A stretch of DNA of 64,000 bases from Cyanidioschyzon merolae. Taxonomy: Eukaryota. This document shows, piece after piece, positions 13,597 to 52,972 of this stretch; positions within the stretch are counted from its first letter, which is position 1, and the number at the start of each line of letters is the position of its first letter. Below the pieces are notes generated by a model. The model was given only the letters and a program-made list of their open reading frames with translations. It made no database searches and was not told the origin of the DNA. The stretch is from assembly GCA_000091205.1 (NCBI GenBank), contig AP006496.2; one strand, written 5' to 3'. The position numbers and the translations under genes were made by a program.

Positions 13597-14982
13597 AAAA
13601 AATCGAATAGGTCTGCTTTGCTAACTTGGGTATAGACGCTAACGTTTGGATGCCTTGCAAGTGTCATCGACAGAAGCGTTTGCACGCGTTTTTCGTCGAT
13701 GACTGTTTCAGTGTGTGTGTGTGTGTGTCCTCTCTGTCGCCCGTATATCCGGATTCCAATACACTGGTCTTGATGCATCTGCGTCCAGTTCTGTCGCCTT
13801 TGGACGACAAATATTGATGGTAGCGTGCAGGTCCCGGTTTCTCCGCCTCCGGCTGTTGCCGACGCATACCAGGCTCATACGAATGTTGCGATCAGCACTG
13901 CGCTTGCAGTGTTCTTTTTCTGCGTTTACAGCCTCGGTGCGCGCTTTGCAGCTGTGACAAATGACTGAGGTCAGGTGTTTTCGTATGGCCACCAGACCGT
14001 CCCCTCCGAGATCCGCGCTGTGGCACGTGGACGGTTGCATCATCGACCAGTACGTACACCTGACGTGTCCAGCAGGCGCCCGTCGACGCCTTGCTCTGGT
14101 GCTGTGCTCGGTACCGTACCCAGCGATCACAAGGCTTGTTCTGGACGATCTCGTCGACGAGTACAGTGTCCGCAGCCCACGCGTGAGCGGTCACTGCTCC
14201 GTTCAGTGGGGTATTGGCGGCAAACGATGTTGTTTACGATGAAACAAGTCCTCGAAGAAATATCCAGGCTGGAGATGGAGTCGAGAAATTCCGATCAGTC
14301 TCCGATCCCTTCGTGCTAAGCGATGACGCATGCCCCACTGGAAGCGATCGCTACGATGACGCAACTCGGTGTGTCCCAGACACTTTTCCATGCAAATAGA
14401 AGCAACCACAGCGTCCCAGCGCATATCCGCTTTGAGGTATGATGTTCTTGTCGAACGCGGTTCCGTCGATGATCTCGAAGCGGGGAGCATTTGTCTTCCA
14501 AAACGGAGTCGATTACTTGACGTGACATGTTCTGTGAACTTGAGGCATGAGCGCTCGAAGTAGTCGTCAAGCGACGACACCCATGATTCCGCTTTCCGTA
14601 TGAAAGTGGCGCGAATGGCAGCGCCCGTCAGTTGCCTCGGGATCGACTGATCCAAAACCTGAAGAATGTGTGCGATTCGAGCATGCTGCACGCAAGGCAA
14701 GGCAAATGCTGCAGTCTTACGCGTCTGAAAAGGATAATCATATCTGTTATTCCGCGAGCGCTTGTTCGTGTGCATACCGAGTCATGTTGCTACAGGTGAC
14801 GTTCCGAGTGCCAAGCGCGGTAGACCCGAACGCGCCGCTCCGAAAGCAAGTCACAGATTCCGTAAACGACCTCTGAAACGGTACGCCTTTACTGCTGCAC
14901 GTCGAATGTCGAGCATGCACATCTCCAGAAAAAAAAACCTCGGAAAAATCAAAAGGCGGGAAAATAGCCTGCAGTTCAGCGT
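13597..14982 (-). mobile_element. Copy A (minus orientation) of a roughly 1.4-kb dispersed repeat that encodes a frame-interrupted TnpB/Fanzor-like protein. It carries a (CA)n tract near its 3' end.
   Basis: It is more than 95% identical to 30319..31690 and 51645..52972, while the flanking sequence is unrelated. Coding order is a 190-aa ORF (MHTNKRSRNN...RRLIGISRLHLQPGYFFEDLF), then ...TVLVDEIVQNKPCDRW..., then ...CHSCKAR...HCKR...NRDLHATINICRPK. This is an RuvC-I/II/III-like order with a zinc finger before the last motif. Confidence 0.6.
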
Positions 14983-15747
14983 TCTCTTTTAATTTTATAC
15001 GGGCGCAGAGCATAGGTCGCCGTTCTTCTTGTATCGCTTCCATGTCCCGTGCATTCCAGTTCGATCTAGCCGATGGAAGCGGAGGCTCCATCGATCCCGC
15101 GATGCCTTAGATGCCGAGAAATCCGCGGACACCAGCTGCAGCGGTGTATGCGACGCAAGCGCTACCCATGCCCAGCTCCAAAATGGTTCTCCGATACCCT
15201 GACCGATAATGCCGAATGGTCTTCTTCTCACACCCGCATGATTGTCGCTTCGCGATGCAGCGAACGTGATCCAGGGCCAAAGCCCCGCCTTCGACATATC
15301 ATGCAGCGAGGAGCGGAAGCCGGCAGTCCAGTGGTAGCACTCGTGCCTCGCCCCCGGGGGCTATGGGTATTGCGCTTTTGGAAAAACCCGCGCACGAGAC
15401 ACGCCCCGATCCGACATCATTTTTCATCGATGGGGTCAGCGCTACAGAGCCCAACAATGCAAGCCGGGGATCATCACGCTGGTTGGATCCTTCCCAGCCG
15501 CAATCGAACGCTCCTCTGGAACTGGGCGCTGTCTCCCTCGGAGGGAATTTTTTCACTTGCGAGTCCGTCGGTAAGGCATTCCCAACTTAGCGCACACACA
15601 GGCGCCAACACCCGAGCACCAACACTGGTTATTCAATCTGCTCCGATGACAGTGCTTCGTCCTTGACCTCGCTCAAGATGCTACGGATGTTGCATCCGTG
15701 GACGTGTAGCGTAGAGCCGGCTACGGTGCCGAGATCGTGGGAGATGG

Positions 15748-16395
15748 CTAGGAAGCGGCAACCAATGCTGGGAGCGTGTAGACACAGGAAGCCGCGAGCT
15801 GCGGCTTGTACAACACAACCAACGACTGATTCATATCTTGACCATTGACCGTGCTTTGACCTGCAAACGCATAATAAAGATTGGTGGCTGCATCGCATGT
15901 CTCCGGCAGCAGCGCACCCAGCGTCCCGTCAGCCGTTAGCTCGTACGACCCCAGCAAAATATCCACCGCGGTGGCCGCCAACGTGACCTCTTTGTCGCAG
16001 CAGCGCTCGAGACAGAGCTTCCCGGGTTTAATCTTTAAACTGTCGAGGGAAAATATGGTGTGCACGCTCCCTGGGCAATGTGACGTCCCGGTGCTGAGCG
16101 CAGCGTCCAGCGATCCCTGCAAACTCAGGTATACGCTTCCGTTTCCCTCTGAGCTTAAACACAGGCCTGAAAACGACTTTCCGCTAGCGCAAAGATTCGA
16201 TGGGAGACAGTCGCTGAGGCAGGATCCAACTTCGCGGGAACGAGCAGGTGACCCTCCACAGGTGAACACACACGAGCTGCTTTCAACATAAACAACGCTG
16301 TAGAAGAGAAAACTAGAAAGGAGCGGCAAGAGGACCCAGAAACGCCCACGTCGCCTGCCTTCCACAGCCGAAGCCGCTGCAGTATTGCTCACCAT
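15748..16395 (-). CDS. Secreted cysteine-rich hypothetical protein, paralog 2.
   Basis: N-terminal signal-like sequence MVSNTAAASAVEGRRRGRFWVLLPLLSSFLFYSVVYVESSSC. Cys spacing and motifs are shared with 12732..13394. Confidence 0.45.
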   Translation of the reverse strand: MVSNTAAASAVEGRRRGRFWVLLPLLSSFLFYSVVYVESSSCVFTCGGSPARSREVGSCLSDCLPSNLCASGKSFSGLCLSSEGNGSVYLSLQGSLDAALSTGTSHCPGSVHTIFSLDSLKIKPGKLCLERCCDKEVTLAATAVDILLGSYELTADGTLGALLPETCDAATNLYYAFAGQSTVNGQDMNQSLVVLYKPQLAASCVYTLPALVAAS

Positions 16396-18366
16396 ACTTT
16401 TCTCTATAAGGTTACTGTTGAAGTGAATATGAGAAGACTATTGTCTATTGAAGAGCATTAACCGTATCCGCTCGCTCTACAAAGCATCTCGGCGATCGGC
16501 CTCGTGGCGTGTGATCTGCATTGCCTCGGAAGAGCGCTGGACAACGTTTCTACCATGTGCTGCCTCCATATGCAGATTTTGCGTACGCAGTAGCCTTCCT
16601 ACGGCCGAGGCATTCATCATAGACTCTTGTATTTCAGACGCATGGTCGTCAGCTGAAGCGACAGTTGGGTCGTTTTTGCTGTTAGGATCACAGCGGGCTT
16701 CCTGGGTGCGAAGCTCGAGCTGGGCACAGAGATGCCAGCCCGCTGGTGGTGCCCCGACGCACGCCCCGGGCCTTGAGTCCCGTATCGCGGAGTATAGGCG
16801 TGCAGCAGTGCGGTCGCGTAGGCCGTAGCGTCCCTGGACGGATAGAGCGCTCGGTGAACCGGACAATTGACGACGGGCCGCACCGCAGGGCAAGAAGCAA
16901 GTGAGCGAATCCGCAGTTAGCCCCTTCGAGCAGAAAAAGAAATGATACTGAGGACGGAGACAACCTCTGCGACGACTGGGAAGAATACAACTGTATGCGC
17001 AGATGTCTACTGCTGTCTTGTAGGAAGCTTCTACGTAGACGCGTCATCCAGGTGTAAGAGCGGCCCGAGCGCAGTATACCTTTGAATATGTTCTCTAAAG
17101 CGCAGTCAAGGGTGCGGGACTTGAATCTTTCACTGTGCTTTTTAACAGGCATGCGGAACCGATGGACGTGGGTCGACGTCAGCGAGTGCCTGATTGCGAA
17201 TGAGCCGCACGCGGAGGAGGCGGATGGTTCAGGTCATAGCTTGCGTGAGTACAACATCCTCTAATCAGGAATTCTGGTATCGATATGACGTTGTATGGCA
17301 GGATTTGGAGACCGTTCCGGAACCTGCTGCCCAGTGCCCGTTTCCAGCCGTCGCAAATATACAAACCGGACGCATTCGATAGCCATGTGGAGATTTTCGT
17401 GCTTGCCCGGATCGATGCAACACTGTGCACTTTTCTAAGCGTGTTGAGTACCTAGTCCAGAGACATCCTATGAGAATCCAGGAGCGAGTTGCGTTTTCCC
17501 TGCTGCGCTTTCTTCAACATAGACCTCCCGCCCCCCAAAATGACATCTACTTGCAATACCACAACGTTTTCGCTCTAACTTCTGCGCCTACAATGCCAGT
17601 GAATCCCAACCGTTGGTATCCCGTTCTCTCTGAGAGACCAGGTCCGTTCGATTTTTCGGAAGCGTTCTACCTCTTTCGACGAAATAGGTCGAACAGCACA
17701 CCTCCTTCTGACTGAATGCAATCGGGAATATATTGAAGTCGAAGTTTTCGCCGAAGTAGTCTAGTGCAAATGCCTCCTCGGCGCCTGCCAACGCCCATGG
17801 ATTCAGGGGAGCACCCGCTGAGACTCCTCAGTCTTGCTCCAGAAGAAGCAAGTGCATGCGGAGCTTCTGCACTAGAGCTGGAACCTGGAAATCCTCGCGT
17901 ATAAGGTAAGTTCGATGACCCCGCAACTGCCAACCTCCGTGTATCCTGGAGAACGTCCATTGACCTACAACGAGCTCGTTCCCGGACAAAGTGCAGCGCA
18001 TGCAAATGGTAGCCGCCTGCTGGCCAAAGAACTTGGTTTGCGCTGTGGACGGCCCGGCGTTTCCGGTACGAAGCGCGTACCTGGATCGTAACACGTAACC
18101 TATCTGACGACGAGGAGCGCCCTAACGACCCTTTGGAAACTGCGGGACGCGCAAGGTCGTTGCAGCGCTCCCGAGAACAGCTTTCACGCTCGGGTACACG
18201 TGTGCGAAGCGGCAGCGGGGAATAGTCAGAGACAGGCAACCCGGACGGACCACGAAACGGGCATTCAATGTACAAAAACCCTACATAGAGCATCTGCGCT
18301 GTCTCTTGCGTTCCTGAGGCGTCTCCAGACGAAGCGGCTACCTGGAACGCAGCAGCGCTGGGCTCG

Positions 18367-20385
18367 ATGCCGTTTCGGAGAGTGCTCATCGCAAACCGAG
18401 GGGAAATTGTGCGACGAGCAGCCAAAACGCTTCGGAAGCTCAATATCGAGCCTGTTGTTGTTTATACCAAAGCGGATGAAACAGGAACACACGTTCGAGA
18501 AGCAGTCCGAAAGCAGCGAATCGAGTCCTACGTCTCCATAAGCGAGGTCGTTGCTGCAGCTCGCAGGGCACGCGCAGACGCGGTCTTTCCGGGTTATGGC
18601 TTCCTCGCAGAGAGAGCCGACTGTGCAGATGCCGTTCAGCAGGCAGGCATGACGTTTATAGGACCGTCTGCACGTGCCATTGCTCGACTGAGCGATAAAA
18701 TTGAAGCGAAAAAGTTCGTGAAAGCGCTCGGCATCCCTGTCGTGCCGGGTTACGTGGATCCACTTGAGCATGTTGACCACGCAGGCTATATTGCCAGAGA
18801 GCTGGGCTTCCCGGTTGTTCTCAAGGCTGCATCCGGAGGCGGCGGTCGAGGGCTCCGCGTCATCCACCACGAACAGGAGCTGCGTACCCAGTTTGAGGTC
18901 TGTGCTGCCGAGGCGAAACAGGCGTTCGGCGACTCCCGGCTGCTCCTCGAGAAATACCTCGAGCCAGTACGTCACATTGAGGTGCAGATACTCGGTGATC
19001 GCCACGGGAATCTGGTTGTCTTTCCAGAGCGCGAATGCAGCATCCAGCGCCATAACCAGAAGCTACTGGAAGAATCGCCGAGTCCGCTCGTCGATAAGCG
19101 CCTGCGCTGGCGACTCTTCCACGATGCCTCCAGAATTGCGCGTGCTATCGAGTACGATTCGGTGGGGACAGTGGAATTCCTCGTGCATGCGCACACGAAA
19201 GAGCATTTTTTTCTGGAAATGAACGCGCGACTCCAGGTTGAACACGCTGTGAGTGAGGCGGTCACCGGTGTAGACCTCATCGAACACATGATTCGGGCGG
19301 CATCGAACCAGGTTGTCGATCTAGATGAACCCGAGAACATCACCAGACTCGAGTTGGATCACGATCCACCGTTTGAAACGTGCCGAATGCTGCGCTCGCG
19401 AGGCTGGGCCCTGGAGGCGCGTATCTGCGCAGAGGGCTGGTCTGCGGGCTCACTGGTACCCAGTACAGGTCGCCTGCACAAGTTTCGCCTTCCCGTATCG
19501 CAACCTGGGGTGCGCGTCGACAGCGGCTACGATGAGGGCGATTCGGTTTCGCCACTCTTCGACTCGCTGCTGACCAAGGTGATCGCTCACGGAGAAACGA
19601 GAACCGCGGCACGTCGAAGACTGGCTCTGGCGCTCGACGCGTTGCTCATTGATGGCGTCGAGCACACAACAGGTCTGTTGCGGGATATTGTCGCCAAGGA
19701 TGCAGATTTTGCGAACGGGATATACACTACCCGTTTTCTGAAAGATTACGCTCTGCATTTCAACGAGTCCGATGCGCGCAGAGCGCTCCAGCTCATGGCA
19801 AATCGAATGAAGGTCGATCCTGGGACCAAGAAACCGATTGCAGCGCTTACCGTCGAATATGGACTAGTGCGCTTTGACCGGGAGCATGACACGGTGGCAG
19901 GTTCGGTTGCGAGTTCTGGAGCCACAGCGCCGCTGCCTCTGCAGGACAGCGACGGACTTGACGCCCTGTCGGACACGCCCGAGTCGCCGTTGTTCGTGAT
20001 GGCACCACGCAGAGCTCCTCGGCTGCTGTTTCGCGGTATGCCTATCACTGTGCAGCGCCTTTTCGATGAAGACGAGCTGATGCTTTGGGAGCGCATCCGA
20101 AAGCCAGTATCAGCAGCGCCAGTCGAGGCGAATGCTTGGCGAGCCCTGCATGCGCCCATGCCCGGTATACTCGTTGCAGTCCTAGTTTCCGTGGGTGACG
20201 AGGTTCAGCCAAAGCAGCCGGTGGCGATACTGGAATCCATGAAAATGCGGAACATGCTCCACGCTCCATCCTTGCCTCCAGGTGCGCAAACACTTGTCGT
20301 TGGTTCGATTCGCGCCGCTGTAGGCACCGTGCTGCGCAAGGGTGACCTCATCCTCGAGTTTTCCTTACCGACTTTTACGACTTAG
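18367..20385 (+). CDS. Biotin-dependent acyl-CoA carboxylase alpha subunit (MCCA/PCCA-like): biotin carboxylase domain plus a C-terminal biotinyl (BCCP) domain.
   Basis: N-terminus MPFRRVLIANRGEIVRRAAKT. ATP-grasp and biotin-carboxylase motifs (GGGGRGLRV, EMNARLQVEHAVSE). C-terminal biotinyl domain with the biotinyl-lysine motif ILESMKMRNML. Confidence 0.9.
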   Translation: MPFRRVLIANRGEIVRRAAKTLRKLNIEPVVVYTKADETGTHVREAVRKQRIESYVSISEVVAAARRARADAVFPGYGFLAERADCADAVQQAGMTFIGPSARAIARLSDKIEAKKFVKALGIPVVPGYVDPLEHVDHAGYIARELGFPVVLKAASGGGGRGLRVIHHEQELRTQFEVCAAEAKQAFGDSRLLLEKYLEPVRHIEVQILGDRHGNLVVFPERECSIQRHNQKLLEESPSPLVDKRLRWRLFHDASRIARAIEYDSVGTVEFLVHAHTKEHFFLEMNARLQVEHAVSEAVTGVDLIEHMIRAASNQVVDLDEPENITRLELDHDPPFETCRMLRSRGWALEARICAEGWSAGSLVPSTGRLHKFRLPVSQPGVRVDSGYDEGDSVSPLFDSLLTKVIAHGETRTAARRRLALALDALLIDGVEHTTGLLRDIVAKDADFANGIYTTRFLKDYALHFNESDARRALQLMANRMKVDPGTKKPIAALTVEYGLVRFDREHDTVAGSVASSGATAPLPLQDSDGLDALSDTPESPLFVMAPRRAPRLLFRGMPITVQRLFDEDELMLWERIRKPVSAAPVEANAWRALHAPMPGILVAVLVSVGDEVQPKQPVAILESMKMRNMLHAPSLPPGAQTLVVGSIRAAVGTVLRKGDLILEFSLPTFTT

Positions 20386-21956: not shown

Positions 21957-22575
21957 TACAGGATCAGGGGCACCGCGAACATCACACCACGAATATGTCT
22001 GCTTTGGATGGTAACGTACAGAAACATAGAAGATTAAGGGCAGTTTGCTTTGAGCGATATCATGCAGAAACGTACAGGATCAGGGGCAGCGCGAACATCA
22101 CACCACGAATATGTGCGCTTTGAATGGTAACGTACAGAAACATAGAAGATTAAGGGCAGTTTGCTTTGAGCGATATCATGCAGAAACGTACAGGATCAGG
22201 GGCAGCGCGAACATCACACCACGAATATGTGCGCTTTGAATGGTAACGTACAGAAACATAGAAGATTAAGGGCAGTTTGCTTTGAGCGATATCATGCAGA
22301 AACGTACAGGATCAGGGGCAGCGCGAACATCACACCACGAATATGTGCGCTTTGAATGGTAACGTACAGAAACATAGAAGATTAAGGGCAGTTTGCTTTG
22401 AGCGATATCATGCAGAAACGTACAGGATCAGGGGCAGCGCGAACATCACACCACGAATATGTGCGCTTTGAATGGTAACGTACAGAAACATAGAAGATTA
22501 AGGGCAGTTTGCTTTGAGCGATATCATGCAGAAACGTACAGGATCAGGGGCAGCGCGAAGAACGCGCGCGAATCC
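21957..22575. repeat. Tandem satellite of a 119-bp unit, about 5.2 copies.
   Basis: The unit tacaggatcaggggcagcgcgaacatcacaccacgaatatgtgcgctttgaatggtaacgtacagaaacatagaagattaagggcagtttgctttgagcgatatcatgcagaaacg recurs at 21957, 22076, 22195, 22314 and 22433. The first and last copies are diverged. Confidence 0.9.
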
Positions 22576-30243: not shown

Positions 30244-30318
30244 TCATTGGCGTTAGGTTTCCGGGGCTGTGGCTCCAGCGCGCGCTGCAAAACCCGCGAC
30301 GGGCTGATATATCCGGCA

Positions 30319-31690
30319 CTGAACTGGAGGCTATTTTCCCGCCTTTTGATTTTTCCGAGGTTTTTTTCTGGAGATGTGCATGCTCGACGTTCGACGTGCA
30401 GCAGTAAAGGCGTACCGTTTCAGAGGTCGTTTACGGAATCTGTGACTTGCTTTCGGAGCGGCGCGTTCGGGTCTACCGCGCTTGGCACTCGGAACGTCAC
30501 CTGTAGCAACATGACTCGGTATGCACACGAACAAGCGCTCGCGGAATAACAGACATGATTATCCTTTTCAGACGCGTAAGACTCCAGCATTTGCCTTGCC
30601 TTGCGTGCAGCATGCTCGAATCGCACACATTCTTCAGGTTTTGGATCAGTCGATCCCGAGGCAACTGACGGGCGCTGCCATTCGCGCCACTTTCATACGG
30701 AAAGCGGAATCATGGGTGTCGTCGCTTGACGACTACTTCGAGCGCTCATGCCTCAAGTTCACAGAACATGTCACGTCAAGTAATCGACTCCGTTTTGGAA
30801 GACAAATGCTCCCCGCTTCGAGATCATCGACGGAACCGCGTTCGACAAGAACATCATACCTCAAAGCGGATATGCGCTGGGACGCTGTGGTTGCTTCTAT
30901 TTGCATGGAAAAGTGTCTGGGACACACCGAGTTGCGTCATCGTAGCGATCGCTTCCAGTGGGGCATGCGTCATCGCTTAGCACGAAGGGATCGGAGACTG
31001 ATCGGAATTTCTCGACTCCATCTCCAGCCTGGATATTTCTTCGAGGACTTGTTTCATCGTAAACAACATCGTTTGCCGCCAATACCCCACTGAACGGAGC
31101 AGTGACCGCTCACGCGTGGGCAGCGGACACTGTACTCGTCGACGAGATCGTCCAGAACAAGCCTTGCGATCGCTGGGTACGGTACCGAGCACAGCACCAG
31201 AGCAAGGCGTCGACGGGCGCCTGCTGGACACGTCAGGTGTACGTACTGGTCGATGATGCAACCGTCCACGTGCCACAGCGCGGATCTCGGAGGCGACGGT
31301 CTGGTGGCCATACGAAAACACCTGACCTCAGTCATTTGTCACAGCTGCAAAGCGCGCACCGAGGTTGTAAACGCAGAAAAAGAACACTGCAAGCGCAGTG
31401 CTGATCGCAACATTCGTATGAGCCTGGTATGCGTCGGCAACAGCCGGAGGCGGAGAAACCGGGACCTGCACGCTACCATCAATATTTGTCGTCCAAAGAC
31501 GACAGAACTGGACGCAGATGCATCAAGACCAGTGTATTGGAATCCGGATATACGGGCAACAGAGAGGACACACACACACTGAAACAGTCATCGACGAAAA
31601 ACGCGTGCAAACGCTTCTGTCGATGACACTTGCAAGGCATCCAAACTTTAGCGTGTACGCCCAAGTTAGCAAAGCAGACCTGTTCGACTT
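30319..31690 (+). mobile_element. Copy B (plus orientation) of the roughly 1.4-kb TnpB/Fanzor-like repeat family.
   Basis: The same ORF set as copy A with identical frame interruptions: 30521..31093 (190 aa), 31102..31404 (...TVLVDEIVQNKP...) and 31253..31582 (...CHSCKAR...NRDLHATINICRPK). The boundaries are set where similarity to copies A and C stops. Confidence 0.6.
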
Positions 31691-31882
31691 CATATACGCC
31701 CACACACGGATATACCAGGCATTCGTTTGTGTGCAGGCGCTCTGCGCTGCACTGCTACCGCCATCGCTGTGTCGCATTCTCACCGAAACGCCGTCCAGTG
31801 TTTGAAATCCCACTCCCTGTGTGGAAGCGCTGTCAAGCAGCACACCGACTGCGACACCCGGTTCGCGGACGGCGTGCTGCGC

Positions 31883-33489: not shown

Positions 33490-33790
33490 ATGATGATGAG
33501 GATACTTATCTTTACCCATCAGGATGATACGCGGAGGCAAGTGAAGCACCATGGTGCTGCTGCTGCTGCTGCTTGTAAGGTTCAAGATGATCATGATGAT
33601 GCTAGCCGATAGGCACCAGCATGATACGCGGAGGCAAGTGAAGCACCACGGTGCTGCTGCTGCTGCTTGTAAGGTTCAAGCTGATCATGATGATGCTAGC
33701 CGATAGGCACCAGCATGATACGCGGAGGCAAGTGAGGCACCACGGTGCTGCTGCTGCTGCTGCTGCTGCTGCCGCCGCCGCATCCGCTGT
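33490..33790. repeat. Tandem repeat of a roughly 94-bp unit, about 3 copies, with an embedded (GCT)n/(GCC)n tract that expands in the last copy.
   Basis: The unit catgatacgcggaggcaagtgaagcacca(c/t)ggtgctgctgctgctgcttgtaaggttcaag(a/c)tgatcatgatgatgctagccgataggcaccag recurs at about 33523, 33618 and 33712. Confidence 0.8.
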
Positions 33791-34576
33791 GGAGGCCCCA
33801 GGGCGCAGCTCGTGATTTATCTGATGACAAAACGTTTCGATTGACCATGGATCCCAGAATTCGGAATGAATAATAGCTTTCGGGAAAGCGCCCATGATGA
33901 GGCGCCTAACTTCAAGTTCCATTACCCAGACTTCCTCTCGGATATACTGGTCGTTTCGTATGTTCTATCGTACGCCGAGCCTGCCGTGAACACCCGCCGT
34001 TGCGCTTATATACCGCTGAAGCAGGTGCTGCAGGGAGACAGAACGGCTTTGGCATACCACTGAGGGCGTCGGCTCGAAGGATGATTCATCCGACATGGGG
34101 TCGGAGTACATCATAATTCTGAGAGCCTGTAAGCTGCGTAGACAGACGCACTGCCCGCGGTAGCGCGAATCGATATAGTAGGAGTCCACTGCGAGCAGGG
34201 CGACGCCCAGATGCAGCAAAGCTGCATCTAGTCCCAGGATGAACTGCGTTGCGGACGAGCTGCGCAGGTCTCGCCACAGTACCTGCCAATGGAAGCCTGA
34301 AGCACGAGCCCGGCAGACTCGCCCGGCTCGCGGGACCTTCCGCCAAGAAGGTAAACTTTCGAAGATACTGAAACTTTTCCCCATTTCAACGCTTACGATC
34401 AAGGTCGAGCGCAAATGTTATCGAGTTGCCATTTAGTGAATAGTTTCTGTTCTTTCCGCAGCTCGTGATACGCTGCGAATCTGCGGCGCGCAAAGGCAAT
34501 GCGTCCACGACTCGCGGCACTCGGATGCGTCGCTTCTGAGCGTCACCAGTGATAGACACGTGCAGGAGTTGCATTC

Positions 34577-35173: not shown

Positions 35174-35624
35174 GCGCGTTTCACTCGGACACTGGGTGCT
35201 CGATGAGAACGGCAGGCGCTTGTGTGGCAAATGTACCACCGCACAGTGGCACCCTATGCACAGCTCACGTCTTTTGGTTACAGGCACCGCAGCTGGGTAC
35301 CGTGAACGGCAACCCGCAGTGTGTGCACCTTAAGGAGAGTCGCTGCGTTATCATGCATCTAAGGCATGGACGCTTGGCTGCCTGCGAATACGCTTGCTGT
35401 CGTTGTCCGTTGCCTTTTCCGCTGGACGCTTTCGAGTAGATCGCTTTGCGGCACGTTGGCAGTCATGGCGGGTACACGCTGCCGCGCGCCCAGCGTAGCA
35501 CAGATGCATGGATCGACTTCATCGTGGACTGCAACTTAGGAAGAGGCAACCGCTCGCGCAGGGTGGATCGCTGAAACGCTCTCCTCCAGAGCTCGCATGA
35601 ATCACTCGAGACGTTTTTCGGAAT

Positions 35625-37050
35625 AAAATGGAACTGGTCAGATTTACAAACTCGGGCATAAACGCTCAATTTTGGCGCTTTTTCCACTGTTTACAAAACG
35701 AGCGTTGGCGGGCCTGTTGATGCGACTGCTTTGCTTGCCTCTCTCTCTTCTCTCAGACTTTGAATACGCGAGTCTGTCCTGTCTCCCGGGCTCTCACTTG
35801 CCAGCAGTCGAAGGATGTTGATGGCAGCGTTCAGGTCCCGATAAAGCCGCAGGCGGATGTTGCCGATGCGTTTTACGCACATAGAAGGAAGTTGAGATCT
35901 ACGTCTCGCTTCCCGGTTCCATGTTCTTTGCAGAAAGTGTTGTTGCCCCCGTGGCGGCGGCGACACTGGGACGCCGCCAGGTGTTCCCGTACGTCCAGCA
36001 TGCCTGCTCCGCCGAGCCGTGCTCTGTTGCGCTTGAACGCTTGCGTCAACGCTCAGTCCATATTCTTGACAGATAGAGGGGGCTGTCTTCGATGCCCTCC
36101 TCAGTTTTCCGGTCCCAGTGCCATAACCCAGTAACAAGGGATTCTTCAAGGCGATTCCCTTCGGCAAGTGCACCGTGCGCTGCACACGCAAGCGCACGCT
36201 TACCAATCCGATAGACGATTTGTTCAAAGCGATGCTGGTCATGGTGAAACAAGTACCGCAAACAAAATCCGGACTGGAGATAGAATCGAGCAATGCCGAT
36301 TCGGTTGCGGTCCTGACGTTCCAAGCGCTGACGCATTCTGTCCTGGAAGCGATCGCTACGATGGCTCAAGTCCGAGTCAAAGACCTTTTTCCATGCAAGC
36401 AGATGAGGCGAGCACCTCTGAGGGCAAATCCCTTAACAGGTGTCATGTTACTGGCGAGCGCCGTCTCCTCGATGGAAACAAATGGAGTAGGATTTGATTA
36501 CCAAAATCTATGGAATGCAGCATCCCGTTCGGTGCTCCGTGACGTTTCGGCATGAGCTTGTGAACACGTTGCCGAGAAGCCACGTCGAGTTTCTTTCGAT
36601 GTCAATCCAGCGGCGTGAATTGCTGCCTCCACGATACGCCGTACCCCAGAACGATTGAAAACGTATAGCATGCATAGTTTCGGCATGCTTTTCGTGTGAA
36701 AATGCGACGCATATCACTTTTTACTTACGAACTGGATACCGATATCGTATAGTTTCGGAATCCGTGTTCGAAGGCGCCACAAATGATCCTGGTTCCTATA
36801 TCAAAACGAATTCCAGCGGCGAATCGTCGAATGAGCGCCACTCCGATACCACGGACTCAGAATCCGAATTTCTCGCATGATTCCGTAACAAGTGGCCGTT
36901 ACATTTCAAATGCTGAGCGTGCATATCTGGAAACACTTCACAAAATCAAAGTGCTGAAACAGAGTCCACGGGTCAGTGTTCCATGTTCATCCGGCAAAGA
37001 CATGGATGCCTTGCATGGAACCGAGCGCACAGCGCCAGGTCACAGCACAC
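35625..37050 (-). mobile_element. Diverged fourth copy of the TnpB/Fanzor-like family (minus orientation). It retains a canonical RuvC-III motif RDLNAAINIL.
   Basis: ORF 35691..36293 ends ...CVKRIGNIRLRLYRDLNAAINILRLL. ORF 36046..36369 (HRSDRFQDRMRQRLERQDRNRIGIARFYLQSGF) is homologous to the 190-aa ORF of copies A-C (HRSDRFQWGMRHRLARRDRRLIGISRLHLQPGY). The 3' end (35625-35660) is homologous to the family 3' end (tatgcccgagtttgtaaatctgaccagttccatttt versus tatacccaagttagcaaagcagacctattcgatttt). The 5' boundary is approximate. Confidence 0.5.
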
Positions 37051-37106
37051 CGCAGCCGCTCAAAAAAGCCATTCCCCACTTAGAAAAAAAGCGCTTCCGC
37101 TTGAGT

Positions 37107-43094: not shown

Positions 43095-43495
43095 GCGCTT
43101 TCTGTATGCTACTTCCCTGGATGGAAATACCCAAAGCGATGCTTAAGATGCCTGGTTCATGGAGAGGATCTCCAAGTCCCTGAGAAGGCATGTGATAGCT
43201 TTCTGCATGCTACTTCCCTGGATGGAAATACCCAAAGCGATGCTTAAGATGCCTGGTTCATGGAGAGGATCTCCAAGTCCCTAAGAAGGCATGTGATAGC
43301 TTTCTGTATGCTACTTCCCTGGATGGAAATACCCAAAGCGATACTTAAGATGCCTGGTTCATGGAGAGGATCTCCAAGTCCCTAAGAAGGCATGTGATAG
43401 CTCTCTGCATGCTACTTCCCTGGATGGAAATACCCGAAGCGATGCTTAAGATGCCTGGTTCATGGAGAGGATCTCCAAGTTCCTGGAAAAAAACC
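43095..43495. repeat. Tandem repeat of a 102-bp unit, about 4 copies.
   Basis: The unit gctacttccctggatggaaatacccaaagcgatgcttaagatgcctggttcatggagaggatctccaagtccctRagaaggcatgtgatagctttctgYat recurs at about 43106, 43208, 43310 and 43411. Confidence 0.9.
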
Positions 43496-45946: not shown

Positions 45947-47380
45947 GACGCAACACCACGTCTTCAGTACGAGGCGCTGGGTGTTGGCGGGGAAATGTGA
46001 ACGGTCTCTAAGCAGCCGGGCGTCATGAACTGCGTCAGCGCTGCTTGGATTCTAGACAAGAGACCTTCTACTTAAAGAGTTGGGCATTACTGACTTGGAA
46101 TGGATTGTGAAACCGGCACGAAACGCTCCCTGAACATGCAAAGCACGCTTGGTGCTCTGCGCAGTGCACCTGGCAAAGGCAGACGCAACGGAGCTAGGTG
46201 GAACGTCGCCTGTGAACCCCACAGAAGCATCACATCCAAGAGCGCGAAGTTGCATAGGTAGAGCGCTGCACATCGTGCTTGTTGGCAGCAGAGGCGACGG
46301 GCAGACGAGCGACGCAGATTCCTGCTCCACAAAAAAAAGCAAGCATTGACAGGTTCAACTGCGCTCTGACGATAACCTGGAGAGTGCGTATGTCGCGAGC
46401 TCCTATTCTATCGAGGCTTCATCCAAAATACTGAAAGTCATTCGTGAGATTTTGGGGCGGCGTTTGCACCGCTTCGCTCGAGCCAGAGCTCGAAGGCTTT
46501 CGCGCTCACGAGACCTACCCGTGCTGCGGCGGCACGACACGCGACCACCGTAGTGTCAAGCAGCTTGTGTCCCCACGAGTAGCCTCGAGAGCGTCCGCAC
46601 GATGTATAACCGATGCTTGTGGTGCTAGTTCTCGTGCTCCTGGTAACTGCCTTCAGAAAACGCCTCGAACTGCGTGGAGTTGCATGTGCTGGACCAACGT
46701 AGAAGCGATCCTTCGGATTCGAAAGCCAGAAAACACACAACCTTGAGCTGAGACCCAGATGATACCCGCTTCGACCAGTGCCCTATCTTTCATGAAACTG
46801 AATGAATCGTTGTTTACAGAATCACCGCCCCCGTCAACCATCATGAATATAAAGATGATGATCATAATCAGTGCTTTCGAGTAGGCATGTCGGCGAGGCG
46901 CAGCATAGAATTCTGTTTACATGAACCAGGGATATCCCCGATGTAGCATCACCATGGTTAACGGCATCTGGGAGAGCGTCCGCCATGATCATGCACGAGA
47001 CCTCCGAGCCCCAGCGGTAACCAATGGTACTCCCCTTTGGCAATTATGGTTCGTTTGTACAGTCCTCCGAATGCTGAATGCCTGCCGCCGCAGCACCGAA
47101 CGTCGCAGCGCTCCCAGTCGACGTAAACGCAAGATCCAGGGGACTGCAGCGTGCCGCAGCGCGTTCAAGTCCACAGCACCAGCTCCAGTGAAGCGCTGGC
47201 TGCTCACGAGGTGCATCCGGTTCGTGCCCACGACGACCAACGCCGCTCAACTTGACGCTCGCCAAGCACCGCACCGCGAGCGTCCGTGCCTGGTGCACGG
47301 CATCGATACACAGGTCTGCAAGAAACCTCGTACCGTTCGATGCTCGTGACCCAGAGCGCATCTGTTGCTTGAAAGCGATA

Positions 47381-50300
47381 TCACGCCTGATCCGTGTCCG
47401 AACTGCTGAACGTCTGAACCAGCTGTCGAAGTAGCGGCAACACCGCTGCAGTCTGTTTGCTGTCGATGCCGTCGAACGCGCTTCCTCGTCGCTCGCGTTC
47501 GCGGCGAAGCTGTGAGAACTGCGAGAGTATGCGTAGATATTGCATGCAGGTGGACGCTGCACAACCGCGGGAAGTTGCCTCCTCCAGAATCAGCTCAAGG
47601 ACGCGCTCAACTTGGGGGAGACGCGTTAGCAACACGATCTGGAGCTCAACATTCTCGCGACAGACTGCAGCGGGCGCACAACGGAACAACTCGGGAAGCG
47701 CCTGCAAGAGTGCCGCATCGAGCGACGGGACCGTGCCGCTTCCGGCCCAGTGCTCAGCGAAGCGCCGAAGAACACTCAACGCCGCTCGGGTTAGTGCTGC
47801 GCTTTCGGGTTCGGGGAGCATCGCTGGCGGCCCCGTCGGCTGCCACTGACGAGCAACCAGCTCGATCGACTGGAAATGGATGCCAACCGCCCCAGCGACA
47901 ACAACGTGCAGCAGACACGGCCACAGCCCTTGGTGTGTATCATCCACAATGATCGACGCGAGGCCGTTGTTCAGTAGTTGGCCCAAGTACGTGTAGAAGA
48001 GATTGCGCAATGTGTAGCGCTCGCGTGCCTCTTCCGAAAGCACCGGAGTACCGCTGGGAGCACCTCGAGAAGTGCTCACGTTAGGTAATCGTCCATCAGT
48101 CGACTCTGCGGGCGCATCCGCTGGAAGCAGCGGAAACCAGGAGAGCAGTGCTCGCACGAGCGGCTCGAAAAGGCGTCGCTGACTGGAAACACAAGCCGTC
48201 TGAAAGCGATCACATAGTTGATTCTCTAACAGCACCAGTGCCTGCAGATCCTGTTCAAGCGGCAGCGCTTCTCTGCCGAGCTCCAGACGCGTCTCGATGA
48301 ATGTGGCGATGCGGTCGCCTGTTTGCGGCTCCGACAGCAGCTCCGCAAGTCGGTGCAGCAGCGGACGTGCGTCTGCGTCCAGCCCATAGGCTGGACTTGG
48401 AGCTGCTTCGAGGACCCAGTCCAGACAGGTCAACCAGATCTGGCTCAGACGCACGTCCTGCTGGCACTGGGCCGGAGAAAAGCCCTTGCTCAGGTGGAGT
48501 ACTGCACGCAAACCGGATGCGCTGCGAAAGAGGCCGCTGCTATGCATGGGAACGAGGCAACTTTCCAGGTAATGGAGGCGGGTATCGGCGGAGAGTGCTT
48601 CACTGGAAATCAGCAGCGAGATGCACTCCACCAGTGGTAACTGTACCAGGTTCAGATCGGGGTCCTGGCCGTCCAGATGCACCAGGTCTTGGAAATGGTG
48701 CAGCAGGTACTCTACCCGGAAACGTCCGTTCTGAATGAGCATCGACGACAGCGCTGCTGAAGGCACACGCTCTGGCAATAAGCTTTTCCAGCCAGTCGCC
48801 ACGCGGGTCGCGCTATCCGCTGGGATGCCGCTGTCTGCGGGCGAGGGTTCGCGGCGTGTTCCTGTTGCAGCGACCGGAGCAGCGGCAACGACCCCGGCTT
48901 GCTCGCGGATGTGTTCAGGGTCGCGCGGGAGCACATCGCGGAGCGCCTGCACCAGTCGCACACAGGTATTCGCAGCATGCTCGCGCAGACGAGTGCTCTC
49001 CGACTGGAGCGAAGAGACGAGCATCGGCAACACGTACGCATACAGCGGGGGCGACTTTGGTAGCAGCACCGCACCGAAACGTGCAACCACATCAAAGTAG
49101 ACCAAATCCATCACCGGATCACTGAGCACCTGGCGAGCATTCTCCAGCACAAGTTCGCGGGCGTTTTCCGGGAAGCTGCTCGCGAGCTCGAGCAGCAGAC
49201 GTGCTTGCAGCCGTCGGGCCGGCAGTTGTTGCAGTGTTTCTAGCACCAATGTCGGGGAACGTTTCACCACATGACCCAGTACGCTCATGATCTCGGTGGA
49301 GCAATCGTCACTGCTGGTACTCAGCTGACTCACCGCGTCGCTTACCTGATCCCTCGCAAGAGTCGGTGCCTCGTGGACTGAGGCCAACGGCACGTCGGTG
49401 CGTACGCCGTTCGGTTCACTGGTGGCGGCGTCTGAAGTATCGCGCTCGTTGGTTTCCAGGGCCAGAAGGTGTTGCAGGATCGCCGTTAACAGCCTTCTGC
49501 TGAGAGCGTCCCAGTCGACAGTTTGCAGTCTTCGCGTCAAACTCGACATTGCCGAGAGTACAGGTGCACTGAACAGCAGCGCTTGTGCGTTCGTTGTTGG
49601 CGATGTTGTCGCGCCCAGAAGCGCATCCAGCAGCGTTCGCAACGCGTTTGCCGCCCAGTTGCTGACCGTCGCTTCACTCGTTTCGTAAAGTTCAAGCAGC
49701 TCCATGAGCAATGAGCCCAGTAAGGATGACCACGAAGGCAAAGCATCCGAATCAGCGTTTGACGCATTCATAACGAGCTCAACGAGATGCAACGATTTGC
49801 AGACATGTACTTTCTCTCCCGGATGGGCAACTTTGCGCAAAAGCATTCGCTCTAGAGCTGTCACTGCTGCCGAAACCACCGTCACTGGCCAGTGTTGCCC
49901 CGCTGCGTTTGATACCAGTTGGAGCAGCGGTTGCTGAAACCGCTCCACAATTGCCGAGAGATCCATCCAGAATGCATAGTCCGCGAGCAGCTCTAGAACC
50001 CCAACTACCAGCTCCGTTGTCGATAGCATCGTGCCCGGTTTTTTCGGTTCACCTGAGGAGCGCATCACCGCTGAAACAGCCTCGGGAAGTTCGATACCTT
50101 CCGCATCCGTCTGCAGCGCAGCTCGGAGCAGATATGCCCACCAGTCTAGCAGCAGCAGAGCGGAGCCGTCAGCACGCATGGCCTCCTTCAACCGAGACGC
50201 TTCAACATGCCGCTGGGCTTCGCGGGCGAGCACCTGTTCATGAAGTGCCCGTAAGAAACGCAACATGGCATCCGCATCTAATGCTTGCAATAAATCAACG

Positions 50301-50677
50301 ACAGCATTCGGCCAGTTCAGCGGATATCGCTCTACAACAAGCTCTGCGATCAGCTGTGCAGCTTTGTTCTTCACATAGCCAGGCGCGTGCCCGCTGGTCT
50401 GCGGTGAGCGTGAAAGCGCAAGCACTTGCTGCAAACTCAGTCGTTGTCTCGTGGAAAGCAGCACCTGTAGACACCAAAACACCAGTTCTGGCCTAAGAAT
50501 CCTTTCATCGGACACCGCCAGTGACCAGCAGAGCGTAAAGCCACCGTCCTCAGTAGCGGCGGTGACTCGCTCGAGAACAGCCCGCGCCTCCTCGGCGTGG
50601 CTCGGTGCGATCCCCAACGGTGGGTTCAGCGCGTAGAATGCCGCCAGTTCGAGGTCGCCTGTTGATGGATCGATCAT
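47381..50677 (-). CDS. Large HEAT/ARM-repeat protein of the karyopherin (importin-beta/exportin) type. The specific family is uncertain (exportin-5 or exportin-T-like is a guess).
   Basis: A 1098-aa continuous ORF. Leu-rich amphipathic helical repeats run throughout. The N-terminal region is consistent with an importin-N-like domain. Only low-resolution recognition was possible. Confidence 0.45.
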   Translation of the reverse strand: MIDPSTGDLELAAFYALNPPLGIAPSHAEEARAVLERVTAATEDGGFTLCWSLAVSDERILRPELVFWCLQVLLSTRQRLSLQQVLALSRSPQTSGHAPGYVKNKAAQLIAELVVERYPLNWPNAVVDLLQALDADAMLRFLRALHEQVLAREAQRHVEASRLKEAMRADGSALLLLDWWAYLLRAALQTDAEGIELPEAVSAVMRSSGEPKKPGTMLSTTELVVGVLELLADYAFWMDLSAIVERFQQPLLQLVSNAAGQHWPVTVVSAAVTALERMLLRKVAHPGEKVHVCKSLHLVELVMNASNADSDALPSWSSLLGSLLMELLELYETSEATVSNWAANALRTLLDALLGATTSPTTNAQALLFSAPVLSAMSSLTRRLQTVDWDALSRRLLTAILQHLLALETNERDTSDAATSEPNGVRTDVPLASVHEAPTLARDQVSDAVSQLSTSSDDCSTEIMSVLGHVVKRSPTLVLETLQQLPARRLQARLLLELASSFPENARELVLENARQVLSDPVMDLVYFDVVARFGAVLLPKSPPLYAYVLPMLVSSLQSESTRLREHAANTCVRLVQALRDVLPRDPEHIREQAGVVAAAPVAATGTRREPSPADSGIPADSATRVATGWKSLLPERVPSAALSSMLIQNGRFRVEYLLHHFQDLVHLDGQDPDLNLVQLPLVECISLLISSEALSADTRLHYLESCLVPMHSSGLFRSASGLRAVLHLSKGFSPAQCQQDVRLSQIWLTCLDWVLEAAPSPAYGLDADARPLLHRLAELLSEPQTGDRIATFIETRLELGREALPLEQDLQALVLLENQLCDRFQTACVSSQRRLFEPLVRALLSWFPLLPADAPAESTDGRLPNVSTSRGAPSGTPVLSEEARERYTLRNLFYTYLGQLLNNGLASIIVDDTHQGLWPCLLHVVVAGAVGIHFQSIELVARQWQPTGPPAMLPEPESAALTRAALSVLRRFAEHWAGSGTVPSLDAALLQALPELFRCAPAAVCRENVELQIVLLTRLPQVERVLELILEEATSRGCAASTCMQYLRILSQFSQLRRERERRGSAFDGIDSKQTAAVLPLLRQLVQTFSSSDTDQA

Positions 50678-50924
50678 TCCTCTGGACCGTGAGGTAGAGA
50701 GGACGCGCCTGGCTTAGGATCCACGCTGGGTCCGAAAGCACTGGCCCTTTTAGGGCCTCTCGCCCACGGATGCTGCGGAGCGGGCGCCTCTGGTACAGCA
50801 GACGCGAGCACTGCACTTGAGTGCGTCTTCTGCTTATACTTGGAAGCGCTTGGAACAAATAAAATTCGTCTATGGTGATAGGGCGCTCTGCAGCGCTCCC
50901 GGAAAGGCTAACCGAGTGTACTCC

Positions 50925-51285
50925 AAGATTGTAGCTCAAGAGCTGGCCGTTGCGGTGTTTGGTTGCTCCGCAAACTCCCCAAGCAAGGTTCACTGATGAC
51001 ACTACAACGACGCTAGGGCAACCCTGCGTTGCGTCTAGAGTCGCTGGTGATTGGTTGTCCAGTTTAGAGCTCAAGAGCTGGCCGTCTGTGCTGATTGGTT
51101 GTTCAGCAACCTCCCCAAGCAAGGCTCACTGGTGACACCACCACGACACTAGGGTAACGTTGCGCTGCGTCTGCAGTCGCTGGTGGCTGGTTGTTCAGCA
51201 ACCACCCCAAGCAAGGTTCACTGGTGACACCACCACGACGCTAGAGTTATGCTGCGCTGCGTCTGTGGTCGCTAGCCAGCGCTCT
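50925..51285. repeat. Tandem or interspersed repeat of a roughly 96-bp unit, about 3 copies, in the upstream region of the karyopherin-like gene.
   Basis: The unit ttggttgYtcMgcaaMctccccaagcaaggYtcactgRtgacacYacMacgacRctagRgYaaYSYtgcgYtgcgtctRYagtcgctRg is repeated. The flanking motif (tagagctcaagagctggccgt) is partially duplicated. Confidence 0.8.
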
Positions 51286-51300
51286 TCGACAGTCAAACGT

Positions 51301-51308
51301 TTCGGTAA

Positions 51309-51342
<34 letters not shown>
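51301..51342. repeat. (GTCGGC)7 hexanucleotide microsatellite.
   Basis: cgtcggcgtcgtcggcgtcgtcggcgtcgtcggcg, read directly from the sequence. Confidence 0.9.
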
Positions 51343-51343
<1 letters not shown>

Positions 51344-51644
51344 CAGCGGCATGCCCAGCAACGTCGCAGGCAGTGCCGCTGAGAAGGGAGTGCGGCAGCC
51401 GCAGGAAGCGCCTGGCAAGGCTGTTTTCCAGCTCGCTTTACAAAGCGGCTTGCTAGAGACCTCGCAGAAGTCAAGTCTTTTGGCATGCTTTCGTATGGGA
51501 GCTTTTGAGAGAGCCCCCGAGACCTATGAGGGATTCCAGAATATACCAACGAAGGGTGCTTCATCTTCACTCGTGTCGGATGAACACGAGACACTGAATT
51601 GATCGCCCTATACCTGGATGTTGAGCTATTTCGGGTGCTTTTTT

Positions 51645-52972
51645 AAATGAGCATGCTCGACGTTCGACGTGCAGCAGTAAAGGCGTACCGTTTCAGAGGT
51701 CGTTTACGGAATCTGTGACTCGCTTTCGGAGCGGCGCGTTCGGGTCTACCGCGCTTGGCACGCGGAGCGTCACCTGTAGCAACATGACTCGGTATGCACA
51801 CGAACAAGCGCTCGCGGAATAACAGATATGATTATCCTTTTCAGACGCGTAAGACTCCAGCATTTGCCTTGCCTTGCGTGCAGCATGCTCGAATCGCACA
51901 CATTCTTCAGGTTTTGGATCAGTCGATCCCGAGGCAACTGACGGGCGCTGCCATTCGCGCCACTTTCATACGGAAAGCGGAATCATGGGTGTCGTCGCTT
52001 GACGACTACTTCGAGCGCTCATGCCTCAAGTTCACAGAACATGTCACGTCAAGTAATCGACTCCGATTTGGAAGACAAATGCTCCCCGCTTCGAGATTAT
52101 CGACGGAACCGCGTTCGACAAGAACATCATACCTCAAAGCGGATATGCTCTGGAACGCTGTGGTTGCTTCTATTTGCATGGAAAAGTGTCTGGGACACAC
52201 CGAGTTGCGTCATCGTAGCGATCGCTTCCAGTGGGGCATGCGTCATCGCTTAGCACGAAGGGATCGGAGACTGATCGGAATTTCTCGACTCCATCTCCAG
52301 CCTGGATATTTCTTCGAGGACTTGTTTCATCGTAAACAACATCGTTTGCCGCCAATACCCCACTGAACGGAGCAGTGACCGCTCACGCGTGAGCAGCGGA
52401 CACTGCACTCGTCGACGAGATCGTCCAGAACAAGCCTCGCGATCGCTGGGTACGGTACCGAGCACAGCACCAGAGCAAGGCGTCGACGGGCGCCTGCTGG
52501 ACACGTCAGGTGTACGTACTGGTCGATGATGCAACCGTCCACGTGCCACAGCGCGGATCTCGGAGGGGACGGTCTGGTGGCCATACGAAAACACCTGACC
52601 TCAGTCATTTGTCACAGCTGCAAAGCGCGCACCGAGGTTGTAAACGCAGAAAAAGAACACTGCAAGCGCAGTGCTGATCGCAACATTCGTATGAGCCTGG
52701 TATGCGTCGGCAACAGCCGGAGGCGGAGCAACCGGGACCTGCACGCTACCATCAATATTTGTCGTCCAAAGGCGACAGAACTGGACGCAGATGCATCGAG
52801 ACCAGTGTACTGGAATCCGGATATACGGGCAACAGAGAGGACACACACACACACACACTGAAACAGTCATCGACGAAAAACGCGTGCAAGCGCTTCTGTC
52901 GATGACACTTGCAAGGCATCCAAACGTTAGCGTCTATACCCAAGTTAGCAAAGCAGACCTATTCGATTTTTT
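51645..52972 (+). mobile_element. Copy C (plus orientation, about 75 bp truncated at the 5' end) of the TnpB/Fanzor-like repeat family.
   Basis: ORFs 51794..52366 (190 aa, 3 substitutions versus copy A) and 52526..52861 (...CHSCKAR...NRDLHATINICRPK). The 3' end ...agcaaagcagacctattcgatttttt is shared with copy A. Similarity begins at gcatgctcgacgttcgacg. Confidence 0.6.

Follow-up and report, generated by a model that had tools for sequence, protein, structure and literature searches.

A 64,000-nucleotide stretch of Cyanidioschyzon merolae DNA (GenBank assembly GCA_000091205.1, contig AP006496.2; 'the window' below means its whole length) carries four copies, here c1 to c4, of a dispersed repeat of about 1.39 kb. 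These repeats are probably the fossils of an extinct Fanzor1-like family, three of which (c1, c2 and c3) were probably homogenised by ectopic gene conversion and so mimic a young element. The window contains no functional nuclease gene and no functional guide RNA gene. The stretch is part of chromosome 14 of strain 10D, and five of its long open reading frames (ORFs) are identical to annotated proteins, including CMN246C, CMN254C, chloroplast FtsY and propionyl-CoA carboxylase alpha.

Copies, extent and age of the repeat

Repeat arms at 13597-14922 and 51647-52972 are 98% complementary over 1326 nucleotides (nt), and arms at 13717-14935 and 30361-31579 are 99% complementary over 1219 nt. By blastn, c2 is 98.3% identical to c1 over 1380 nt and 97.7% identical to c3 over 1323 nt. 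The fourth copy is collinear with c2 from end to end, with about 60% identity overall and 70% in the best 251 nt. Copies c1 to c3 lie within 38 kb and in both orientations, c4 sits between c2 and c3 and is not homogenised, and the flanks of the four copies are unrelated to one another. An earlier note on this DNA, made from the letters alone, had described three near-identical copies and one diverged copy in unrelated surroundings, with no visible terminal inverted repeats (TIRs) or target site duplications (TSDs), and this description holds. No second ORF is present inside the 1.39-kb unit.

The extent of the element was read from a hidden Markov model (HMM) of the family that was built without c1 to c3, from other old copies only (1363 positions). 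This model aligns c1 at 13597-14992, c2 at 30314-31692, c3 at 51580-52971 and c4 at 35617-36990, and c1 to c3 run from model position 2, 3 or 11 to position 1356 or 1357. All four copies are full length. The copies delimited in the earlier note are real and, according to this model, slightly longer than it had them. In particular, c3 had been called 5'-truncated; the copy is complete and only its high-identity tract starts at 51647. Eight independent loci give the approximate left end of the element as ...TGAACATGGAACA-CTGAAC... and its right end as ...GTTCCATTTTATTCTGG, with a short internal inverted match (ATGGAAC / GTTCCAT) near both. TIRs, a TSD and a strict flanking motif were all absent from these eight loci at a resolution of a few nt, which is set by the divergence of the copies, and the left flanks share no strict short motif beyond what appears to be diverged element sequence.

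The family extends well beyond the window. Two peptides conserved in both c2 and c4 were used to seed a scan of metagenome contigs, which gave at least 21 loci. Four of these are the c2 and c3 loci in strains about 99% identical, and three are c4. Old copies occupy at least five further loci, and their amino-acid identity, measured in the ORF that served for the scan, is 27-42%. In nhmmer searches such further old copies span a c2/c4 model from about position 13 to about position 1412, which makes them full-length units with the same ends; in all, at least six additional full-length old copies were recovered from Cyanidioschyzon-like genomes. Among the matches listed, none of the metagenome copies has an ORF longer than about 240 amino acids (aa). 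A HMMER search with the C-terminal ORF of c2 against 1.84 billion representative proteins gave 69 matches at E <= 1e-3; since all are short (61-280 aa) and 29-50% identical, they are ORF fragments called on other decayed copies. A profile of the N-terminal half added seven more fragments and no intact protein. Altogether, an intact ORF was found neither in 10 or more copies nor in 76 database fragments.

Two apparent features of this census were discarded. The invariance of the peptide SHRSDRFQW across all loci is an ascertainment artefact, because the peptide was itself a search pattern. A 21.1-kb metagenome contig that carries exportin-T, the repeat and FtsY was rejected as a rearrangement or circle, because the assembly has looped through c2 and c3, direct repeats that it collapsed. 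This contig (L008; ENA ERZ27249350, k141_233987) measures 21,113 bp, and the spacing of c2 and c3 is 21,273 bp. Another contig (L011) joins the left flank of c2 to the right flank of c1 and is a chimera similar to L008.

Any two independent copies share 55-62% identity, the pattern being star-like, and copies are about 25% diverged from their consensus. Differences from the consensus fall evenly on the three codon positions (0.256, 0.231 and 0.258), and the synonymous fraction of single-nucleotide differences is 0.26 in the coding frame as against 0.29 and 0.22 in control frames; no purifying selection was detected among the copies. These patterns agree with one old amplification burst and neutral decay of every copy thereafter.

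The ancestral gene and its catalytic remnants

When the majority base is taken across six independent copies (c1, c4 and four metagenomic loci), the resulting consensus has one long ORF, interrupted by only two internal stops. One of these stands for an Arg codon (CGA) that the consensus renders as TGA; a refined consensus of 76 sequences has Arg at both positions. Between a conserved ATG, about 67 nt from the left end, and a stop codon, about 75 nt short of the right end, the ancestral gene encoded about 406 aa without introns, and the C-terminus of the consensus reads ...KKPVIAGYGTGRGNGGGHRGEPSVPVKGMYRAMKQAFTRHRAALGGGGVVDIWEHLTTVKCHRCEGRTEAVYKEDENGKRSVDRNFRLCMKCVDNSRKQRNRDLNAAINILRLLTTELEGQERPAY.... 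Relative to this consensus, c1 to c3 share about nine frame-shifting indels (eight of 1-2 nt and the expansion of a (CA)n run), where the earlier note had counted two frame breaks and considered an intron-containing Fanzor gene. Introns were rejected as the cause of the breaks, all of which are of 1-2 nt relative to a consensus that is one continuous ORF. For example, c2 differs from c4 at its first break by an indel of 2 nt, and c4 reads on through this site.

The consensus matches PF07282 (Cas12f1-like TNB, the former OrfB zinc ribbon) at E = 6.8e-7 and 29.8 bits, above the gathering cut-off of 26.3 bits. No other Pfam family has a match; 6 of 80 members match this one, and a natural fragment (P0122) passes the same family at 26.4 bits. 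The consensus also matches NF040570 (guided_TnpB, RNA-guided endonuclease TnpB; E = 0.0036, model positions 329-388 of 389), phrog_506 (E = 3e-4) and Cas12f2 (E = 0.013), and the first two of these matches fall at the C-terminal positions expected for TnpB. Aligned by hhalign, the family profile and a Fanzor1 profile match with a probability of 97.8% (E = 1.3e-12, 137 columns, 27% identity). This alignment pairs GYG with VVAYGAG, DIWEHLTT with PVDEFRTS, and NRDLNAAINI with NRDFNAAINI. When two Fanzor2 sequences are used instead, only the zinc-finger/RuvC-III part aligns (E = 0.016). Judged by these profile comparisons, the C-terminal half is clearly a Fanzor1/TnpB-like RuvC/zinc-ribbon module, and the TnpB/Fanzor ancestry put forward in the earlier note stands for this module, the N-terminal half being unmatched.

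Single copies score marginally. Their Pfam matches range from E = 0.044 to 0.14, the lowest being that of the c2 ORF at 31253-31582 to PF07282, and a window ORF matches the phrog_506 'transposase' at E = 0.13. A stitched c2 protein had no match in a word-indexed database of 5.8 billion proteins, and blastn against a phage collection gave none either. Such marginal Pfam, NCBIfam and PHROGs scores are uninformative, because a genuine Fanzor1 used as a sensitivity control, the intact CMe-1-type protein P0076 (752 aa), itself reaches only E = 0.23 for PF07282 and has no match in NCBIfam or PHROGs. The profile search that the earlier note had proposed comes out marginal for single copies and significant for the family consensus. 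We also built an HMM of the Fanzor1 C-terminus from 11 sequences, including CMe-1, five metagenomic relatives, and the Chlamydomonas and Chlorella Fanzor1. When the 1599 six-frame segments of the window, each from stop to stop, were all searched with it, the four copies ranked next after a CMe-1 relic, with c4 at E = 3e-4 and c3, c2 and c1 at E = 1.5e-3 to 6e-3.

Fanzors have a rearranged RuvC-II, in which Gly or Pro occupies the canonical Glu site and an alternative Glu lies about 45 residues downstream, beside [TS][TS]-x-x-C (PMC10530073). The consensus reads IAGYGTG, then 45 aa, then DIWEHLTTVKCHRC, with Gly at the canonical RuvC-II position and the alternative Glu downstream; this Glu adjoins TT-x-x-CxxC, and the second CxxC is present as well. 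The predicted catalytic arrangement of the consensus matches the rearranged Fanzor site. RuvC-III reads NRDLNAAINIL in the consensus, YRDLNAAINIL in c4 and NRDLHATINI in c1 to c3; the earlier note had assigned this motif correctly, as it had the CHSC zinc finger. Its RuvC-I (RRLIGISRL) and RuvC-II (TVLVDEIVQNK) were misplaced, for both align to the Fanzor1 helix/linker that precedes the 'AYG' strand. The zinc-ribbon cysteines are partly lost in c1 to c4. In c1 to c3 the alternative Glu has become Lys (IRKHLTSVIC; codon 31316-31318 in c2), so these copies would be catalytically dead even without their frameshifts. The Glu is retained in c4 (VREHLAASQC), in another frame.

The roughly 200 residues of the N-terminal half found no match in the Fanzor1 profile, Pfam, NCBIfam, PHROGs or PDB sequences, and the 200 N-terminal columns alone are not significant in hhalign against Fanzor1 (E = 0.78). 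In TnpB/Fanzor, the RuvC-I Asp (GxDxG / DPG) is expected 125-275 residues upstream of the TS-zinc finger (PMC3627910). Two candidate RuvC-I strands are present in the consensus: QVFDLS near aa 90, picked by full-length hhalign in a part of the alignment that is not significant alone, and SVFDSD / IVLDPD near aa 182, which has TnpB-like spacing. We regard it as unlikely that the ancestor was a complete RNA-guided nuclease of TnpB size (about 406 aa), intron-less and of the Fanzor1 lineage, with RuvC-I near aa 182; it may instead have been an N-terminally reduced derivative. If the consensus were complete, it would be among the smallest Fanzor1-type proteins, and its 'resurrection' would yield an unusually compact eukaryotic nuclease of the OMEGA type (short for obligate mobile element-guided activity) and link TnpB-like to Fanzor1 architectures. 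In a weaker variant of this unlikely reading, the clustered gene conversion of c1 to c3, described below, could record past homing repair triggered by the nuclease, not ordinary ectopic recombination. A match of consensus aa 186-267 to the SMUG1 uracil-DNA glycosylase of Geobacter (PDB 5h99; E = 0.9, 82 residues) was rejected as chance, since Fanzor1 gives a significant alignment with this very stretch. The SMUG1 alignment looks orderly, and the stretch corresponds to about 30960-31185 in c2.

At the 3' end, the earlier note had proposed a (CA)n-containing segment as a candidate omega-RNA region. The (CA)n run is 12-18 nt long, differs in length among c1 to c3 and replaces an (AG)-rich stretch that once coded a basic C-terminal tail. 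The proposal is not supported, as none of the old copies has the run and no folding signal comes from the 3' ends: compared with shuffled sequence, z is -1.1, -1.6 and +0.8 for the last 150 nt of the consensus, of c2 and of c4, respectively, and +1.3 for the 130 nt at the start of the consensus, none folding better. Rfam gave no match over the element ends, and the neutral decay of the copies makes covariation uninformative. An ancestral omega-RNA may have existed, but neither folding nor Rfam shows one.

Origin of the near-identical copies

Identity among c1 to c3 is 99%, against about 60% to every other copy, which makes them three exemplars of a single sequence that was already dead. Over its first 68 nt, c3 matches c1 at only about 53% of positions (10/19, 9/19 and 12/20 in successive comparisons), which is the level seen between unrelated old copies, and identity is 98-100% from 51647 onwards. 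Over the first 14 nt or so c1 and c2 differ from each other (9/19), and there c3 and c4 agree (14/17). Likewise, the last 45 nt or so of c2 differ from c1 and c3 and keep the states of other old copies. These diverged ends are still homologous to the family, so that the high-identity tracts stop inside the element. Transposition is disfavoured, since it would have copied the termini too.

From this anatomy we infer a gene-conversion origin for c1 to c3. The three would be independent old insertions within 38 kb that ectopic gene conversion, acting through homologous recombination, overwrote with the dead interior of one of them, probably in more than one round because the 3' end of c2 is 85% identical to c1, not 60%. 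Such overwriting would have produced the tracts of about 1.33 kb at 98-99% identity that end short of the element termini. It would also predate the split of the sampled strains, which are about 1% diverged. Among the matches listed, young-type sequence occurs at the c1 to c3 loci only, and in the contigs of strains about 99% identical the copies occupy the same positions, none of these sites being found empty. Homologous recombination is efficient in C. merolae, as gene-targeting work has made clear. The ancestral protein, if it was like other Fanzor/TnpB proteins, would have been an omega-RNA-guided DNA endonuclease that aided the retention or spread of the element, a role suggested by family membership.

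A young Fanzor element, either non-autonomous or intron-containing, that was driven in trans, by an active Fanzor or transposase located elsewhere in the genome, and transposed to three sites would also give 98-99% identity over about 1.33 kb, in both orientations and within unrelated flanks. C. merolae does contain Fanzor1 elements with some intact ORFs (PMC3627910; P0076). Recent mobilisation is what the earlier note had seen here. We consider this quite unlikely, because the identity tracts end inside the element and each copy has its own diverged but homologous termini. Moreover, what was copied is as old and decayed as the other members of the family: it is a single dead sequence about 25% from the consensus, about 60% identical to those members and with 9 frameshifts, and its frame breaks are indels of 1-2 nt. 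Neither a young copy at other loci (among the matches listed) nor an empty site was found. The likeness of c1 to c3 could alternatively reflect function, with concerted evolution maintaining a domesticated non-coding RNA or the 190-aa ORF, which has stayed intact in each of the three and also in related strains. The clustering of the copies within 38 kb fits this view, as does the transcription of the other (3.2-kb) repeat family reported by Nozaki et al. (PMC1955436). However, the 190-aa ORF, which the earlier note took for an N-terminal domain, mixes ancestral and shifted frames and matches neither Pfam nor any other family; its differences among the three copies comprise 5 non-synonymous and 1 synonymous; Rfam and the folding comparison returned nothing; and c4 escaped homogenisation although it lies between c2 and c3. 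Domestication is, on balance, very unlikely.

That the TnpB/Fanzor likeness is itself a chance motif match in an unrelated repeat is barely credible. The marginal scores of single window copies, the failure of the stitched c2 protein to find a match and the lack of PDB matches would be expected if it were. Against this, the consensus exceeds the curated TNB threshold of Pfam, NCBIfam and PHROGs independently match the same region at the right model positions, the profile-profile alignment with Fanzor1 includes the Fanzor-specific 'AYG' segment, and a bona fide Fanzor1 of C. merolae itself stays below significance in Pfam.

Several points weigh against our preferred reading of c1 to c3 as gene-converted fossils of a Fanzor1-like family. 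The N-terminal 200 aa have no detectable homology and no RuvC-I match, so that an ancestor that was a complete RNA-guided nuclease is not proven, and PDB sequence and profile searches of the consensus gave no accepted match. The census was seeded by two peptide motifs and comprises at least 21 loci; further near-identical copies may exist elsewhere in the genome. With copies about 25% diverged from the consensus, the element ends are fixed only to a few nt, and the conserved 14 nt or so upstream of CTGAAC could be a long target motif instead of element sequence. Finally, the 85% identity of the 3' 45 nt of c2 to c1 needs more than one conversion or some other history. If the reading is right, gene-converted fossils can mimic a 'young active' transposon, which matters for the dating of transposable elements in small, recombination-proficient genomes like that of C. 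merolae.

Neighbouring features and known systems

The features of the window discussed here are collected in Table 1.

Table 1. Coordinates of the repeat copies, their internal features and other features of the window
Feature	Position	Strand	Remarks
Copy c1	13594..14993	-	full-length decayed element; identity tract with c2 and c3 about 13597-14979
Copy c2	30305..31698	+	full-length decayed element; 98-99% tract about 30319-31645; about 14 nt at the start and 45 nt at the end diverged from c1 and c3
Copy c3	51579..52975	+	full length; 5' 68 nt (51579-51646) diverged, remainder 98% identical
Copy c4	35617..36991	-	old copy, apparently unconverted; about 60% identical to c1-c3, collinear end to end
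190-aa ORF	c2 30521..31093 (+); 14203-14775 (-); 51794-52366 (+)		fortuitous; ancestral and shifted frames mixed
RuvC-II(alt)/TNB zinc ribbon/RuvC-III remnant in c2	31301..31492	+	LVAIRKHLTSVICHSC ... VCVGN ... NRDLHATINI
GYG (IAGYGTE) in c2	31175..31183	+	Fanzor-type Gly at canonical RuvC-II position (PMC10530073); aligns with VVAYGAG of CMe-1
Catalytic region in c4	35808..36052	-	two frames: MLDVREHLAASQC (Glu kept), MCVKR ... YRDLNAAINILR
(AC)n microsatellite	c2 31568..31579 (+); also 13711-13728, 52841-52858		c1-c3 lineage only; former C-terminal coding tail
CMe-1-type Fanzor1 relic	8310-9910	-	stop-ridden
TE-N2_CMe / CMe-1A 5' module	33823-34545	+	83%
TE-N2_CMe / CMe-1A 5' module	52981-53450	+
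TE-N2_CMe / CMe-1A 5' module	60200-60401	-
tRNA gene	7489-7615	-	127 nt; Rfam 41.7 bits
Tandem array	21957-22559		116 bp x 5.2 at 99%
Tandem array	43097-43484		101 bp x 3.8
Tandem array	33520-33764		94 bp x 2.6
Tandem array	50933-51273		136/92 bp x 2
Weak CMe-1 matches	54142-54225; 63389-63529	+	very weak tblastn, E = 0.2-4

Remnants of the CMe-1 lineage lie in the window separately from the 1.39-kb family. The stop-ridden relic is matched by CMe-1 in tblastn at E = 3e-25 (8324-9910) and by CMe-1A in nhmmer over CMe-1A positions 1459-2996. The 5'-module copy at 52981 begins 6 bp past the right end of c3, and no such adjacency occurs at the other copies. The two very weak tblastn matches are to the 'PVDEFRTSYTHHELGC' region of CMe-1 and may be eroded Fanzor1 debris or chance matches. 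The tRNA gene, which ARAGORN missed, carries an insertion of 37 nt in its anticodon-loop region and has a variable arm of about 24 nt; it probably belongs with the unusual tRNAs known in C. merolae, as an intron-containing member of class II. The four tandem arrays are intergenic, and the copy number of the 94-bp array differs between strains.

A Fanzor1 of C. merolae, CMe-1A, was described by Bao and Jurka in 2013, with a 3169-bp consensus, about 150 copies about 80% identical to it, a 734-aa protein, no TIRs and an undetermined TSD; TE-N2_CMe shares its 5' 635 bp (PMC3627910). The presence of Fanzor1 in this genome is thus less new than the earlier note implied. CMe-1A is probably the repeat of 3.2 kb, present in 253 copies and weakly similar to WSV486 of white spot syndrome virus (WSSV), that Nozaki et al. 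reported in 2007 (PMC1955436). In blastn and nhmmer searches, CMe-1A matches the window at 33823-34545, 8331-9813 (-), 52981-53450 and 60200-60401 and nowhere inside the four copies, and the CMe-1 protein gives only non-significant matches to them (E = 3-4) at RDxNAAINI; the 1.4-kb repeat is therefore not CMe-1A. The two families share a host genome and old, decayed, dispersed copies with neither TIRs nor a recognisable TSD, and AYG/GYG, the alternative Glu beside the zinc ribbon, RD-NAA-NI and the 'RP' tail align between them. They differ in element size (3.2 kb against 1.39 kb) and protein size (734 aa against about 406 aa); moreover, ORFs of up to 752 aa exist for CMe-1, whereas no intact member of the 1.39-kb family was found, and its N-terminal half has no detectable similarity to CMe-1.

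The 1.39-kb repeats would represent a second, short Fanzor1-related family in a genome that has long been regarded as nearly devoid of transposons. This family is apparently undescribed in the searchable literature, although it may equal a Repbase entry or the 'class II elements' of 2007; neither a 2024 paper on dispersed repeats (PMC11050394) nor the Nozaki 2007 supplements held a usable annotation of it. Eight such class II elements were reported as weakly like bacterial transposases, at E = 0.071 to 6e-7 (PMC1955436), and decayed copies of our family would give weak BLASTX matches of just this sort to bacterial TnpB proteins that carry a 'transposase' annotation. Compared by description, the eight may be the best-preserved members of the 1.39-kb family, which may in turn explain them.

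Among characterised relatives, SpuFz1 is a 638-aa protein with catalytic residues D383, E541 and D606 (PMC10432273), and Fanzors average 620 aa (PMC10530073). What the consensus has in common with them is a canonical RuvC-II position occupied by Gly, a conserved Glu some 45 residues downstream and next to the zinc ribbon, four cysteines (C4) in that ribbon, and the RuvC-III Asp of RDxNAAxNI. It is much shorter, its RuvC-I and WED/REC have no match, and its copies are all pseudogenes, with Lys at the alternative Glu in c1 to c3. In overall size and layout, the element resembles the TnpB elements of IS200/IS605/IS607 (NF040570, about 390-410 aa), in that one gene of about 400 aa fills an element of about 1.4 kb with short non-coding ends. 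Unlike those elements, the 1.39-kb family has no TnpA, no subterminal hairpins and no definable target-adjacent motif (TAM). Its sequence is nearer to Fanzor1, with E = 1e-12, whereas the two Fanzor2 sequences tested give E = 0.016.

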